10,972 nucleotides of DNA from a virus, in UHGV virus genome UHGV-1700184; one strand, given 5' to 3'. Positions 2,991 to 7,231 of this stretch are shown piece by piece (positions within the stretch are counted from its first letter, which is position 1; every line of letters begins with the position of its first letter). A model generated the notes under the pieces. It was given only the letters and a program-made list of their open reading frames with translations. It was not told the DNA's origin and made no database searches. A program made the translations under genes and the position numbers.

Positions 2991-3959
2991 TTAGTAGGTT
3001 ATTTTTGTTGCGAATACTTCGCCTTTTACGATGGCTGTTATGATATTTTTAGCAACATCTTCTGATGCGCCAACCTTGATAAGGTCAGCAAGTATTTTGT
3101 TATTTACTTCTTTCCGGTGAGCTTTATCCTTTGCTCTACACTCTTCCTCTTCCTTGATTCTTTTTTCTTCTGCTATTCTGGCTTGCTCTTTTGCTTCAGC
3201 CTCGCGCCGGATTCGTTCAGCCTCCTCCTGTGCTTTTCGGCGTTCTGCTTCAATTGCCGCCTGCTTTTCTCTTTCAGCTCGTTCTGCTGCCTCTTTTGCT
3301 TCGCGCTGTGCTCGTTGCTCAGCTTCAATGCGTTCACGCTCTGCACGTTCCGCTGCGGCCTTAGCTTCTGCTTCTCGCCTTGCTGCTGCTTCAATTTCGG
3401 CTTTTGCCTTTGCTTCGGCTTCTGCTCTGGCTTTCTCTTCAGCTTCTCTTTTTAAGCGTTCTTCATGCTCTCGCTTTTCCTGCTCCGCTTTGAGTCTTGC
3501 CTCTTCTCTTTGGCGGTCAAATTCGCGATCCATCAAAATCGCTATTTCATGGTCAGACTCAATTTGCTTTGCGAGAGCTTCAGCTGCTGCCTTAGCTTCT
3601 TCTTCGGCTTTAATCCGCGCCTGTTCCTCTTCATAATCAGTAAGAGGCTGGCGTGCCTTGGCTTTCAGCTCATCAAGGCGATCACGCACTGTCTTGCGGT
3701 TAGCATCAATTAGCTTTGGAATTTCCTTCAGTTCAGCAACAAGGTCTTTGCCAAGACCATCGAGATATGTTTTCGTCTGCGCAACTTTATACGCCAGAGA
3801 AGCGATCTCCTTTCTGCCCTTTGCCGTTGTGATATCAGGCACAAAGGACATAACTTCACGTTCAACCTTTTGAAGGATTTCTTCAATCTGGTCGGCAGAC
3901 TGAAATACAGTCATTGCATTTGCTTTTTCAATAACAACTAAATCTGTTACTTCACTCAT
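2991..3959 (-). CDS. phage coiled-coil protein with a long E/R/K/A-rich single-helix segment
   Basis: Track ORF, 322 aa, ATG at 3959 preceded by GGAGG. A globular N-terminal ~110 aa is followed by ~170 aa of near-pure E/A/K/R repeats (AEAEAKAKAEIEAAARREAEAKAAAERAERERIEAEQRAQREAKE) and a short C-terminal domain. The DNA is strongly strand-asymmetric low complexity, which creates spurious ORFs in other frames. Confidence 0.8.
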   Translation of the reverse strand: MSEVTDLVVIEKANAMTVFQSADQIEEILQKVEREVMSFVPDITTAKGRKEIASLAYKVAQTKTYLDGLGKDLVAELKEIPKLIDANRKTVRDRLDELKAKARQPLTDYEEEQARIKAEEEAKAAAEALAKQIESDHEIAILMDREFDRQREEARLKAEQEKREHEERLKREAEEKARAEAEAKAKAEIEAAARREAEAKAAAERAERERIEAEQRAQREAKEAAERAEREKQAAIEAERRKAQEEAERIRREAEAKEQARIAEEKRIKEEEECRAKDKAHRKEVNNKILADLIKVGASEDVAKNIITAIVKGEVFATKITY

Positions 3960-3994: not shown

Positions 3995-4306
3995 TCAGGC
4001 TGCTGAGGTTTCTTCTTTCAGGCTTTCGATATATTTACGTGGGTCGTCGTAACATTGGCATTCGCTGTACCAATCTACCCAGCGATCCGTAAGCTCCATC
4101 TCTGATAAATCTTCATCAGTAAGGCTCTCATCCCACATCTCAAGGCCGTTAGCATTGCAGTAGTCAGGCTTGATGTTGTTGTCATACTGAAAGGCATCAT
4201 AATCAGCCAGTGCATCCATCAGGCGAACACCCTCTTCAACACTTGCCACTTCTACAATGAACGGCTTCATAGGTACTTGCGGGATATGCCAGACACGTAA
4301 TTTCAT
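3995..4306 (-). CDS. hypothetical acidic protein, 103 aa
   Basis: Track ORF 3995..4402, but the supported start is ATG at 4306..4304 (MKLRVWHIPQ...) with GGAGG 4 nt upstream; the ATG at 4402 has SD spacing of only 2 nt and would read through a terminator hairpin. C-terminal half is rich in D/E/W/Y. Confidence 0.7.
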   Translation of the reverse strand: MKLRVWHIPQVPMKPFIVEVASVEEGVRLMDALADYDAFQYDNNIKPDYCNANGLEMWDESLTDEDLSEMELTDRWVDWYSECQCYDDPRKYIESLKEETSAA

Positions 4307-4318
4307 ATTTCCTCCGTC

Positions 4319-4346
4319 AAAAAAAATCGCCCTCACACTGGAGGGC
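4319..4346 (-). terminator. intrinsic terminator candidate (minus-strand sense)
   Basis: Stem GCCCTC (4329-4334) / GAGGGC (4341-4346) with a 6-nt loop, followed on the minus strand by eight T (complement of A 4319-4326). Lies directly upstream of the RBS of the 103-aa gene. Confidence 0.6.
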
Positions 4347-4408
4347 AAAGAAGATTTCCAACAATCAGAACAAGTCGGCTCCTGTTTAGTTACGAGCGAC
4401 ATTGCTCC

Positions 4409-4495: not shown

Positions 4496-4945
4496 TTACT
4501 TAACCAATGATGCTGCATATTCGATAAGGTAAAGCTTTGGGGCCAGCCAAATTTTTAACCAAGTCATATTGGTTACTACACCAATAATAAAAATCCCCCA
4601 CAGAGTCAAAACTCCAACCAATGGCATGATAAGAAGATTAATATCACCTTTGCTATCCCAAACCATTGTCGGCCTGTATTTGGGATTTCCTTTCTCCCAT
4701 GAATATCCTTCATCACCGATTTTACCTGTCTCAACTCTTTGGCACTGCTTCTTCATAAACCAGAAAACCAGTGGGATTGTTAGAATGGCCATTAATGTTT
4801 TAATCAGACTGTCAACCATATTCCATAGCAGCAACTGATGAACAACATCAGGAATCTGTGCCTGGCTAAATGAAACAGCCGCGTCTATTCCATTACTGGC
4901 TTTTTGCAGTAGTTCTACGAGAATCTTGTTTGCTTGTTCTTCCAT
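4496..4945 (-). CDS. small integral membrane protein, 149 aa, two predicted TM helices (candidate superinfection-exclusion or abortive-infection cargo)
   Basis: Track ORF; ATG at 4945 preceded by AGGTGA. Hydrophobic stretches LIKTLMAILTIPLVFWFM and INLLIMPLVGVLTLWGIFIIGVV. By eye the DNA is markedly AT-richer than its neighbours. Has its own terminator, and lies in the N-to-cIII interval where lambdoid phages carry accessory genes such as sieB. Confidence 0.8.
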   Translation of the reverse strand: MEEQANKILVELLQKASNGIDAAVSFSQAQIPDVVHQLLLWNMVDSLIKTLMAILTIPLVFWFMKKQCQRVETGKIGDEGYSWEKGNPKYRPTMVWDSKGDINLLIMPLVGVLTLWGIFIIGVVTNMTWLKIWLAPKLYLIEYAASLVK

Positions 4946-4995: not shown

Positions 4996-5084
4996 GGCCA
5001 CCATCAGGCAGCCTTGTAGTTCTGTTTACCAAGTTCTCTGGCAATCATTGTCGTCGTTCGTATTGTCCACACCATTGATTCTTA

Positions 5085-5171
5085 TCAATAGTCGTAGTCA
5101 TACGGATAGTCCTGGTATTGTTCCATCACATCCTGCGGATGCTCTTCGAACTCTTCAAATTCTTCTTCCAT
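5085..5171 (-). CDS. hypothetical acidic, aromatic-rich peptide, 28 aa
   Basis: ATG at 5171..5169 preceded by GAGGTG; translation MEEEFEEFEEHPQDVMEQYQDYPYDYDY. Shares its RBS and first codons exactly with the downstream membrane-protein gene (18-nt repeat). Confidence 0.35.
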   Translation of the reverse strand: MEEEFEEFEEHPQDVMEQYQDYPYDYDY

Positions 5172-5180: not shown

Positions 5181-5280
5181 CAAATAAGTGTTTTGCTGCC
5201 TAATTTCATTTTCTGGCGACCAACACAAGTCACCTCCATTTCACTGCGTGGCTTGCGGTAGTAAATTAGGTTTGTTCAGA

Positions 5281-5304
5281 CAATAAAAAACCCACCGAAG
5301 TGGG
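5281..5304 (-). terminator. intrinsic terminator after the N-coupled gene
   Basis: Stem CCCAC (5291-5295) / GTGGG (5300-5304) with loop CGAA, followed on the minus strand by TTTTTTATTG; abuts the stop at 5305-5307. Confidence 0.65.
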
Positions 5305-5643
5305 CTATGACCATTTTTTATTTGGATTTCGTTGGTGAGCGTGATTAACAACTCTGTGCATTACATCCTCATATTTTTCATCTTCAATTTTTTCGACATC
5401 GCGAGGAAATGGTGTTGCTAATGCTTTGTCAACTTTGTCCATTGGTTCTTCATTAATCTTATATTCAGGACCGTCATCTATAGCATTAAATCCAGGTGTT
5501 ACACCGTTTTTTAATGCATATGCTATCCTTTTTTCCCATCTCGCTATTCTCCTCCTGTCTCGAGATGTAAGACCTCTATCAGATACTTTTCTGTTTTGTC
5601 CGCGGTCAGGATTAACATAAATAGTCTTTTTCACCATAAGCAT
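5305..5643 (-). CDS. hypothetical basic/acidic protein translationally coupled to N, about 112 aa
   Basis: Track ORF 5305..5649 uses a TTG; the first ATG is 5643..5641, 2 nt after the N stop. Arginine-rich segment SRDRRRIARWEKRIA followed by an acidic C-terminal half. No family recognised. Confidence 0.6.
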   Translation of the reverse strand: MLMVKKTIYVNPDRGQNRKVSDRGLTSRDRRRIARWEKRIAYALKNGVTPGFNAIDDGPEYKINEEPMDKVDKALATPFPRDVEKIEDEKYEDVMHRVVNHAHQRNPNKKWS

Positions 5644-5645
5644 AC

Positions 5646-5951
5646 TCAATAAGCACCGTACGGTAGTTTACTGTACAATTTTATTTTTTGGACTGCATGT
5701 ATTTTGTTTCCTAATGGGTTTGAATCTTTGTAATAAATACTTCTATTTTTTCGAACGACTTCTTCTTTCTTCTTGCAGCAAAGGCTTCCTAGTGATGCTG
5801 CTTTGTCTGCTCTGACGCAACCAGAGAGCTTTAGCGCAATTTTTCGCGCCAGTGCTTCATTACTGCGTCGCTCGGCAATAAGTTCTGCTCTGCGAGCTTT
5901 GTAGCGGCTTTTTGCCGTACCTTTGGATTCTTTCCAGACAATGGTTACCAT
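5646..5951 (-). CDS. N: N-family transcription antitermination protein (phage-21 type)
   Basis: Track ORF 5646..5981; preferred start is ATG at 5951..5949 (MVTIVWKESKGTAKSRYKARRAELIAERR) with AAGGAG 6 nt upstream. GTAKSRYKARRAELIAERR matches the arginine-rich boxB-binding peptide of phage 21 N as I recall it. Cognate boxA/boxB lie upstream. Confidence 0.85.
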   Translation of the reverse strand: MVTIVWKESKGTAKSRYKARRAELIAERRSNEALARKIALKLSGCVRADKAASLGSLCCKKKEEVVRKNRSIYYKDSNPLGNKIHAVQKIKLYSKLPYGAY

Positions 5952-6058
5952 GATGGTCTCCTTTAAGTGGCTTTGGCGCATGACGCGTCGAGGTGCTTAT
6001 CTTCTCGATCGCTGTCTTGCAGCTGCAATTCGCGCCATCCCCAAAACCACTCAAGTTC

Positions 6059-6102
6059 TGGTCTCAACGGTTAGGTTGAGAGTCCGTCGATGTTAAAGAG
6101 CC
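6059..6102 (-). promoter_or_regulatory. nutL: nutL (boxA plus boxB hairpin)
   Basis: Read on the minus strand: boxA GGCTCTTTAACA (complement of 6091-6102), a near-perfect match to the boxA consensus, then 9 nt, then boxB hairpin TCTCAAC-CTAACC-GTTGAGA (complement of 6062-6081) with a 7-bp stem. Sits between pL and N. Confidence 0.8.
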
Positions 6103-6139: not shown

Positions 6140-6215
6140 ATGGCTTAAATTTAAGACTTCTTAATTTATTGGTCAAGTGCATTTTTGAAGAAAACTTAAT
6201 TTTATGGGCGTGAAT
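6140..6215 (-). promoter_or_regulatory. pL promoter with overlapping OL operator sites
   Basis: Minus-strand TTGACC (complement of 6171-6176), ~17 nt, TAAATT/TTAAAT. Palindromic operator TTAAGA-CT-TCTTAA at 6151-6164 overlaps the -10; a second imperfect palindrome TTGAAGAAAACTTAA lies near 6185-6200. Half-sites match those in OR. Confidence 0.6.
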
Positions 6216-6266: not shown

Positions 6267-6917
6267 TTAAGGAAGGTTTGCTAGCTTGGCATCAACGACA
6301 ACGCCAATGATTTTACAGTTCCCATTGATTTCAATCATTGGGTATTGTGGATTGAGTGGTTTCAGGAATTTTCTACCGGCATCAATAACTAACTTTTTGA
6401 ATGTCGCCTCGTTTTCTCCTTCAAGTTTGGCGACTACCAGCTTTCCATTACGTGGTTCGACTTCTGGGTCGACGAGAATAATCATCCCCTCAGGAATACT
6501 CAGTCCTGCCGGGGCAGTCATTGAATCGCCTTTAACGTCGAGCCAAAAAGAGTCTTCAGAACAATCTACCGTTGTGTCGTACCAGTTATCTATTGCACGC
6601 CTATGATATGGCTCTACAGCTTCCATCCAACATCCTGCGCTTACCCAACTAATTAGAGGATACGAACCTCTTGGATCATGCCTGCTGTGATAGGCAATGT
6701 TTGAAAGACTATCCTCTCCTTTCAACAGGTAATCAGGGGAGCACTGCAAAGCCTTGGCTAAGGCCAATAGGTTTTCGCCATTGGGCTCAGTTTCAGATCG
6801 CTCCCATTGGGAAATAGCAACATTAGACACGCCAACCATCTTGCCAAGGGCAGCCTGCCTAATCTTGAGTTCTTTTCTGCGAGCGCGAATACGCTCACCC
6901 ATCAGTTGTGTATTCAT
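6267..6917 (-). CDS. cI: CI/C2-type prophage repressor (N-terminal HTH, C-terminal S24 LexA-like autopeptidase domain)
   Basis: Track ORF, 216 aa, ATG at 6917. HTH segment QAALGKMVGVSNVAISQWERSE; C-terminal domain carries the catalytic-type GDSM serine motif and a downstream lysine (VVAKLEGE). The N-terminal domain closely resembles P22 C2 repressor as I recall it. Confidence 0.9.
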   Translation of the reverse strand: MNTQLMGERIRARRKELKIRQAALGKMVGVSNVAISQWERSETEPNGENLLALAKALQCSPDYLLKGEDSLSNIAYHSRHDPRGSYPLISWVSAGCWMEAVEPYHRRAIDNWYDTTVDCSEDSFWLDVKGDSMTAPAGLSIPEGMIILVDPEVEPRNGKLVVAKLEGENEATFKKLVIDAGRKFLKPLNPQYPMIEINGNCKIIGVVVDAKLANLP

Positions 6918-6997
6918 AGTTAAGACATCTTAAATAAACTTGACTTAAGATTCCTTTGGTGAATAATTTAAGTGTTCTTTAATTTCGGAGCGAGTCT
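6918..6997. promoter_or_regulatory. OR operator region with divergent pR and pRM
   Basis: Perfect palindrome TTAAGA-CA-TCTTAA at 6920-6933, abutting the cI start. A further operator-like site ATTTAAGTGTTCTTTAAT (6966-6983) overlaps the pR -10 region; pR -35 TTGACT at 6939-6944. Confidence 0.7.
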
Positions 6998-7183
6998 ATG
7001 TACAAAAAAGATGTTATTGACCACTTCGGAACCCAGCGTGCTGTTGCTAAAGCACTAGGCATTAGCGATGCAGCAGTCTCTCAGTGGAAAGAAGTTATCC
7101 CAGAGAAAGACGCCTATCGATTGGAAATCGTTACAGCTGGCGCCCTGAAGTATCAAGAAAGTGCTTACCGCCAAGCGGCATAA
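6998..7183 (+). CDS. cro: Cro repressor (P22-type)
   Basis: Track ORF, 61 aa, ATG at 6998 preceded by GGAG at a 7-nt spacer. MYKKDVIDHFGTQRAVAKALGISDAAVSQWKEVIPEKDAYRLEIVTAGALKYQ matches P22 Cro as I recall it. First gene of the rightward operon. Confidence 0.9.
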   Translation: MYKKDVIDHFGTQRAVAKALGISDAAVSQWKEVIPEKDAYRLEIVTAGALKYQESAYRQAA

Positions 7184-7189
7184 GCAAAT

Positions 7190-7231
7190 TGCTCTTTAAC
7201 AGTTCTGGCCTTTCACCTCTAACCGGGTGAG
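7190..7231 (+). promoter_or_regulatory. nutR: nutR (boxA plus boxB hairpin)
   Basis: boxA TGCTCTTTAACA at 7190-7201, then ~10 nt, then hairpin TCACC-TCTAACCG-GGTGA at 7213-7230. The loop shares CTAACC with nutL boxB and spacing is the same. Confidence 0.7.

Follow-up and report, generated by a model that had tools for sequence, protein, structure and literature searches.

The transcription termination (arrest) factor Nun of phage HK022 ranks among the phage transcription factors studied in most depth. Nun competes with lambda N for boxB of the nascent lambda nut RNA, to which it binds through its arginine-rich helix, and, together with NusA, NusB, NusE, and NusG, the Nun C terminus enters the elongation complex and translocation is blocked; polymerase stalled by Nun is freed by Mfd, and the exclusion of lambda and lambda imm434 is the only known role of HK022 Nun (PMC5386594, PMC4124055, PMC4496710). 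In HK022, the repressed prophage expresses the gene constitutively, and nun mutants show normal growth and lysogenization (PMC4124055, PMC4496710). Nun is specific for the nut sites of lambda and imm434 (PMC4124055), is toxic to E. coli when overproduced (PMC5386594, PMC4496710), and is present in the HK022 lysogen at an estimated ~100 nM, a level described as tuned to strike only nut-bearing complexes (PMC5386594).

Here, we analyzed a 10,972-nucleotide stretch of DNA from the virus genome UHGV-1700184 (referred to as the window), which carries on its minus strand, directly after an N gene, an open reading frame (ORF) that a preliminary description made from the sequence alone had left as an unknown arginine-rich protein.

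Identification of the ORF as nun

The coding sequence and its functional segments, with residues numbered from V1 of mature Nun, are as follows:

5305 to 5643, minus strand: nun coding sequence, 112 codons counted from the first ATG (5305 to 5649 in the ORF list)
5307 to 5305, minus strand: nun stop codon, TAG
5503 to 5580, minus strand: Nun arginine-rich motif, the predicted boxB RNA-binding helix (D19 to G44, including Y39), by its sequence identity to the peptide of PDB 1HJI
5308 to 5364, minus strand: Nun C-terminal RNA polymerase arrest segment, V91 to S109 (VMHRVVNHAHQRNPNKKWS), identical to PDB 6ALG

The profile search against PHROGs gave a clear, full-length match of the ORF to PHROG 5632 (phrog_5632, "Nun-like transcription termination factor"; E=8.5e-71, 1-112/112), and the search of solved structures aligned ORF residues 4 to 112 with the whole 109-residue chain N of PDB 6ALG, which is HK022 Nun in an E. 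coli RNA polymerase elongation complex (E=8e-71, 107/109 identical). Moreover, ORF residues 22 to 47 were identical at 26/26 positions to the Nun peptide whose structure in complex with lambda boxB RNA is given in PDB 1HJI (chain B). Just two substitutions, S11R and D63E, separate the protein from HK022 Nun, and neither falls in the arginine-rich motif or in the arrest segment. Y39 is retained, as are H93, R94, N97, H98, H100, R102, K106, K107, and the penultimate aromatic residue W108, all of which are contained in the arrest segment; the roles of the arrest residues are taken from published work (PMC5386594, PMC4496710). At the DNA level, positions 5200 to 6100 of the window were 99.2% identical to phage mEp235, whose annotation names both genes ("transcription termination factor Nun" for one, "antitermination protein N" for the other) and places a nut boxA upstream of them.

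Considering the PHROGs match, the identity to solved structures, and the DNA identity to mEp235 and mEpX1, the ORF is, by homology, nun, the orthologue of the HK022 transcription termination (arrest) factor. It is a real gene, far above chance, with 98% identity to a solved protein and with 69/69 orthologous copies free of internal stops. Both the gene and the N-nun layout are already known, being publicly annotated in mEp235 and mEpX1. Thus, the protein described earlier as unknown clearly corresponds to one of the known lambdoid accessory proteins, namely, Nun and not Ral or SieB. The accompanying guess of an RNA-binding function fits the arginine-rich motif, which is identical to the boxB-bound Nun peptide, and the remark that the gene was not recognizable as ral or sieB stands, as the ORF had no match to Ral (phrog_1055) or SieB in Pfam, PHROGs, or NCBIfam.

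Other identities were considered as well. Ral and SieB were rejected for want of homology, the phrog_1055 match in the window being confined to a separate relic at 5004 to 5075, and the N antiterminator (PF25694/PF11438, phrog_271) was rejected because the ORF had no Pfam match at E≤0.1.

Scans of the nun ORF against Pfam and NCBIfam, neither of which has a model for it, gave no match, and PADLOC lacks a model for Nun or the neighboring genes. The poor naming of Nun in RefSeq, where PGAP calls the exact protein "transcriptional regulator" or "hypothetical protein," follows from this lack of a Nun model in the three resources. For the window, the result is therefore an annotation correction, in which a gene under one of these two names becomes nun. 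In phage PA28, nun is annotated as a truncated 45-amino-acid (aa) ORF.

Gene boundaries and start codon

On the minus strand, the N-nun junction reads ...TAC GGT GCT TAT TGA GT ATG CTT ATG GTG AAA AAG..., with the N stop TGA at 5648 to 5646 and the first nun ATG at 5643 to 5641. The gap between them is 2 nt, exactly as the preliminary description had it. Three start codons are available, namely, ATG 5643, ATG 5637, and GTG 5634. The start in use is probably the second ATG at 5637 (MVKK..., 110 codons), located 8 nt past the N stop, since the updated HK022 record, the solved Nun chain, and the divergent homologues all agree on it. In the old HK022 record (X16093), Nun has 112 residues, while the updated record (AF069308) begins at the second ATG; the N terminus of the solved chain is VKK, mature Nun comprising 109 residues numbered from V1; and the divergent homologues begin with MAKK, MVKK, or MGKK.

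The nun product does contain an arginine-rich stretch of its own (SRDRRRIARWEKRIA), as had been noticed, while the "acidic C-terminus" attributed to it applies in part: an acidic patch (DVEKIEDEKYED) is present, but a basic tail (HRVVNHAHQRNPNKKWS) comes after it.

Expression signals

The signals expected to govern nun transcription, including the pL candidate, are as follows:

5670 to 5698, minus strand: predicted nun promoter, with -35 ATGCAG (5698 to 5693), a 17-nt spacer, -10 TACAGT (5675 to 5670), and TG at 5677 to 5676
5281 to 5306, minus strand: intrinsic terminator right after nun, its hairpin (5306 to 5289) overlapping the TAG stop
6148 to 6176, minus strand: candidate pL promoter (TTGACC, 17 nt, TAAATT), from a consensus scan only

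The predicted nun promoter sits in the N coding sequence, within its last 17 codons, and was called by homology to the annotated promoter of O276/HK022: a -35/-10 "nun gene promoter" is annotated in phage O276, whose immunity region is that of HK022, and the hexamers in the window are identical to it. The nun promoters were reportedly the subject of a study by King et al. in 2000. Among the 69 orthologue loci, the 29-mer was exact in 56, the -35 element was constant in all, and the -10 element was variable in 5, a conservation that is partly confounded by the location of the promoter in the N coding sequence. A generic sigma-70 promoter scan did not flag this promoter on account of its weak -35 element.

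The terminator, which had been placed immediately after the gene and is indeed found there, consists of a 7-bp hairpin (AGCCCAC-TTCG-GTGGGTT) followed by TTTTTATT. The hairpin has a folding energy of -10.3 kcal/mol (z=-3.0), a stability reached by none of 200 shuffled sequences, and the HK022 copy carries paired compensatory changes (CCCAC/GTGGG versus CCCGC/GCGGG).

The candidate pL lies between the repressor gene and nutL, a fitting location, from which it would drive N-nun transcription after induction. On such pL transcripts, the translational coupling to N proposed earlier is possible, with nun lying directly after N, but it is not required, since HK022 and HK75 express nun without an upstream N. 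The "early function" proposed on the basis of this coupling fares less well by analogy with HK022, where Nun is produced all the time by the repressed prophage and excludes lambda and where nun mutants are normal; the gene of the window would be expected to behave likewise.

Phage-21-type N, nut sites, and proposed compatibility with the resident phage

The antitermination elements of the window are as follows:

5646 to 5951, minus strand: N antiterminator gene of the phage-21 type, 101 aa (MVTIVWKESKGTAKSRYKARRAELIAERR...), matching phrog_271 (E=1e-31)
6062 to 6101, minus strand: nutL, with boxA (GCTCTTTAACA) at 6101 to 6091 and the boxB hairpin UCUCAAC-CUAACC-GUUGAGA at 6081 to 6062, from sequence and fold
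7191 to 7230, plus strand: nutR, with boxA (GCTCTTTAACA) at 7191 to 7201 and the boxB hairpin UCACCU-CUAACC-GGGUGA at 7213 to 7230, from sequence and fold

The assignment of N to phage 21 rests on its match to PDB 1NYB, as N residues 8 to 29 are identical at 22/22 positions to chain A of this entry (named "Probable regulatory protein N"), which we take to be the phage phi21 N peptide. Both boxB hairpins of the window expose the hexaloop CUAACC, on stems of 7 bp (nutL) and 6 bp (nutR). The boxA elements of nutL and nutR are both annotated in mEp235, and their sequence is the E. coli rrn/lambda-imm21 form, the boxA of lambda-imm21 being the same as that of the E. coli rrn operons (PMC3177189).

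Across the window, no lambda-type boxB was detected at ≤3 mismatches, no hairpin with a 5-bp stem and a GNRNA pentaloop was found beside a boxA, and no HK022 putL or putR element was found; a gathering-threshold Rfam scan of the whole window likewise gave no match. With no put element in the window, self-protection based on put is ruled out here, and the expected protection of the carrier phage from its own Nun would most readily come from its 21-type boxB hairpins. Nun is reportedly without action at the phage 21 nut sites, as Robert et al. are said to have described in 1987 (Cell 51:483).

Gene neighborhood

Two small ORFs were found downstream of the nun terminator:

5004 to 5075, minus strand: ral relic, a 23-codon ORF matching the last 21 positions of phrog_1055 ("restriction alleviation ral"; E=4.7e-8)
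5085 to 5171, minus strand: extremely acidic 28-aa ORF (MEEEFEEFEEHPQDVMEQYQDYPYDYDY) with a strong GAGGTG ribosome-binding site, matching phrog_16060 over its full length (E=7e-19)

This 3' relic is the only trace of ral in the window, while two other nun-carrying loci (L067 and L069) encode a complete 66-aa Ral downstream of nun, and the acidic ORF has apparently taken the place of the 5' two-thirds of ral. A further terminator-like hairpin lies after the acidic ORF, at 5015 to 4994.

Further along the minus strand (3995 to 4402 and 4496 to 4945), a homologue of the P22 superinfection-exclusion protein gp17 (PF17420, E=5.6e-55) adjoins a 149-aa protein (phrog_3054) that looks hydrophobic by eye; these two genes and nun constitute a cluster of likely exclusion genes left of N. 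A 322-aa protein encoded at 2991 to 3959 (minus strand; phrog_1376, phrog_21365) has a long, repetitive, coiled-coil-like middle rich in Ala, Glu, Arg, and Lys, and a homologue of it is named "cell envelope biogenesis protein TolA" by PGAP. The immunity region (6267 to 7183) encodes a P22 c2-like repressor and a P22-like cro together with N and nut sites of the phage-21 type, indicating that the phage is a mosaic. Coverage of the window by any complete E. coli genome was at most 73%.

Distribution and selection

The nun DNA was detected in 221 of 5,426 complete E. coli genomes (~4%), always on the chromosome and mostly under the label hypothetical. The full nutL-N-nun layout was present in 211 of these 221 genomes, the N type of the window occurred in 820 genomes, and the nun carriers included E. 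coli strains bearing Stx1 phages. In the phage collection, Nun was encoded by 30 records, including HK022, HK75, O276, mEp235, mEpX1, Kapi1, and PA28, with the Stx1a phage set among them showing 93% protein identity. The exact Nun protein of the window was represented by 556 member sequences on 860 contigs. All 69 nun orthologues were intact, residues 92 to 109 never varied, and synonymous changes were roughly equal to or above the nonsynonymous count.

Three upstream contexts were observed among the close orthologues in IMG/VR: by far the most have a 21-type N, while others have an N with another arginine-rich motif and a different boxB (L067 to L069) or an HK022-like putL. Co-occurrence with a phage-21-type N is thus usual but not invariable, given that the contexts with putL and with another N exist. 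In other words, the usual companion of nun is a phage-21-type N, unlike in the textbook case of HK022 with its put RNA system, so that immunity of a carrier to its own Nun would normally have to come from the specificity of boxB. At one locus (L068:1530-1580), Nun orthologues that are 92% identical and carry the substitutions R25Q, I37M, and K42E in their arginine-rich motif were found after an N with the motif DDNARNRRRARRQAQREQ; the nutL boxB there is CCCGC-CGAAAU-GCGGG.

A wider family of Nun-like proteins

A profile search of 5.8 billion proteins yielded only ~70 Nun-like clusters (P0002 to P0070). The named sources of these clusters are Escherichia, Citrobacter, Hafnia, Yersinia, Providencia, Photorhabdus, and Klebsiella, to which a genome scan added Proteus and Shimwellia; every named host belongs to the Enterobacterales, a statement that covers the clusters with a named source, many clusters being without an organism name. 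The C terminus is common to all members (D-[VIA]-M-x-[RK]-VVNHAHQRN-x-x-KKW) and is the only block conserved family-wide, while the arginine-rich N-terminal motifs are very different across the family. The 88-aa Nun-like protein of the Hafnia type matches both lambda N (residues 1 to 52, E=1e-11; precomputed Pfam PF11438) and Nun (residues 25 to 108, E=5e-17); it thus forms a bridge between the two, joining the lambda N segment to the Nun tail.

An N-like gene ends only a few nucleotides before the Nun-like gene in nearly all of the loci inspected, and some phages have a tandem pair of Nun-like genes. Loci of this family include L004 (2501 to 2767 and 2875 to 3180), L074, L075, L079, L081, L083, L085, and L086. 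By local alignment score, the heads of the Nun-like proteins resemble a foreign N in L074, L075, and L081, and they resemble the phage's own N in L083 and partly in L085.

This pattern suggests, at the sequence level, an anti-N exclusion that can be retargeted. We tentatively propose, as a possibility that we rate somewhat below an even chance, that Nun could be one of a group of N-derived "anti-N" arrest factors with a common jamming tail and with heads swapped or diverged to copy the N of a rival (lambda N in the Hafnia phages, the N of L083-type phages for L081), nearly all of them encoded right behind a resident N of different specificity, the N-nun layout being ancestral and the put-nun layout of HK022 being derived. 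If this is true, nut-targeted exclusion would be a general, retargetable contest among the lambdoid phages of Enterobacterales, and Nun would be no HK022 one-off. Searches of a literature library on Nun homologues, on Nun with the mEp phages, and on Nun with phage 21 turned up no publication dealing with the N-nun layout or with diversification among Nun-like proteins.

Proposed function and alternative explanations

The best explanation of the locus, which we hold to be very probable, is that the gene is a nun orthologue expressed by the prophage for the exclusion of lambda-type phages, with the resident phage spared by its 21-type boxB; the activity itself is proposed by analogy with HK022 Nun. 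In the lysogen, nun would be transcribed constitutively from its own promoter in the 3' end of N, giving a short message that would end at the terminator at 5306 to 5289. When a phage with a lambda-type nut (lambda or lambda imm434) superinfects, the arginine-rich helix would bind the nascent boxB and compete with lambda N, and with NusA, NusB, NusE, and NusG the C-terminal tail of Nun would wedge into the elongation complex and stop translocation; Mfd would then clear the stalled polymerase, and as a result the early genes of the invader would stay unexpressed. The resident phage would be spared because its own boxB hairpins would be read by the 21-type N and not by Nun. After induction, N and nun would lie on shared pL transcripts, and N-modified polymerase would read through the terminator after nun; ribosomes may reinitiate after reaching the N stop, which lies 2 or 8 nt before the nun start, but this would not be required.

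A different role, in which Nun acts mainly on its own phage by damping or timing N21-dependent antitermination from pL and pR while exclusion is secondary, would suit a gene that lies in the N operon 2 to 8 nt past N. The order of N then Nun-like gene also recurs in distant Hafnia, Providencia, Proteus, and Photorhabdus phages, and the arginine-rich motif of the L083 Nun-like protein resembles that phage's own N (score 88). This adjacency, conserved in very distant phages, and the likeness of the L083 motif to its own N leave room for a role beyond the exclusion of foreign phages. As the main function, however, self-regulation is improbable: the hexaloop boxB of the window (CUAACC) is unlike the lambda pentaloop boxB that was solved with an identical Nun peptide, lytic growth and lysogenization are normal in HK022 nun mutants, nun is present in HK022 and HK75 without any N, and the clearest cases in the wider family match a foreign N and not their own (lambda N for L074 and L075, and the L083 N for L081).

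The gene could also be a silent hitchhiker or relic, intact but unexpressed or useless in a mosaic phage, which we consider very unlikely. The region is highly mosaic with a ral relic just downstream, HK022 has kept a dead 3' piece of N upstream of its nun, and PGAP names the protein "hypothetical protein" or "transcriptional regulator," but against this stand the intactness of 69/69 orthologues with an invariant arrest segment, the conservation of both promoter and terminator, and the spread of the gene, with the exact protein on 860 contigs and nun in 221 complete E. coli genomes. Nor is there more than the slightest chance that Nun is a general, nut-independent inhibitor of RNA polymerase, similar to a toxin or an abortive-infection factor, and not a nut-specific excluder, although overproduced Nun is toxic in E. 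coli, a host without lambda nut sites, can act without nut in vitro, and has a Kd of ~300 nM for nonspecific elongation complexes (PMC5386594, PMC4496710). The ~100 nM of Nun estimated for HK022 lysogens is described as tuned to nut-bearing complexes (PMC5386594), the same weak nun promoter is conserved in the window, and the boxB-binding helix, which a nonspecific inhibitor would not need, is perfectly conserved.

Comparison with known systems

With respect to position, nun occupies the same slot as lambda Ral and SieB, downstream of N in the pL operon, while the ORF shares no sequence similarity with either. Prophages that have the N type of the window but lack nun match it only from a leftward boundary at ~5729 to 5769 up to 6110 and have sieB after N, indicating that nun is an optional cassette in the ral/sieB slot of lambda; in other nun phages, ral comes after nun.

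Nun has been called an N homologue in the literature (PMC4124055), and similar to lambda N it is small and mostly unfolded, has an N-terminal arginine-rich helix for the same lambda boxB, and works with Nus factors. The outcome is nevertheless the opposite, arrest in place of antitermination, and Nun further differs from lambda N in its C-terminal segment (VVNHAHQRNPNKKW) and in being expressed from the repressed prophage.

The closest relatives of the locus are found in mEp235 (JQ182731) and mEpX1 (JQ182727), in which the Nun protein is 100% identical and the N-nun-nutL DNA is 99.0 to 99.2% identical. In mEpX1, nun is labeled "transcription regulatory protein" (Nun-like in the RefSeq copy) and N is labeled "antitermination protein N." The window differs from both phages in its RecT-type recombination genes, in the region downstream of nun, and in its replication genes.

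Compared with HK022, the window has the same Nun at 107/109 residues, an identical arginine-rich helix and identical arrest residues, the same promoter hexamers, an equivalent terminator hairpin after nun, and nun located to the left of the repressor gene. The homology extends from ~5288 to ~5765 and thus covers the terminator, nun, and 120 bp upstream, corresponding to the last ~40 codons of N (5646 to 5765, minus strand). The HK022 counterpart of this upstream segment (L003, 1859 to 1978) lies between putL and nun, with the N stop TGA changed to TGG. This 120-bp homology to the 3' end of N means that HK022 holds a dead 3' fragment of N, and the annotated nun promoter falls inside its former N coding sequence. 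Because this dead piece of N has been retained, the put-nun layout of HK022 looks derived, judging from the sequences, from an N-nun ancestor. The two phages accordingly differ in what surrounds nun: upstream, HK022 has putL and the N fragment and relies on put RNA for antitermination, while the window phage has an intact phage-21-type N and nutL; downstream, HK022 has IS903, while the window has the 28-aa acidic ORF and the ral relic; and HK022 owes its insensitivity to its own Nun to put RNA, an element that the window does without.
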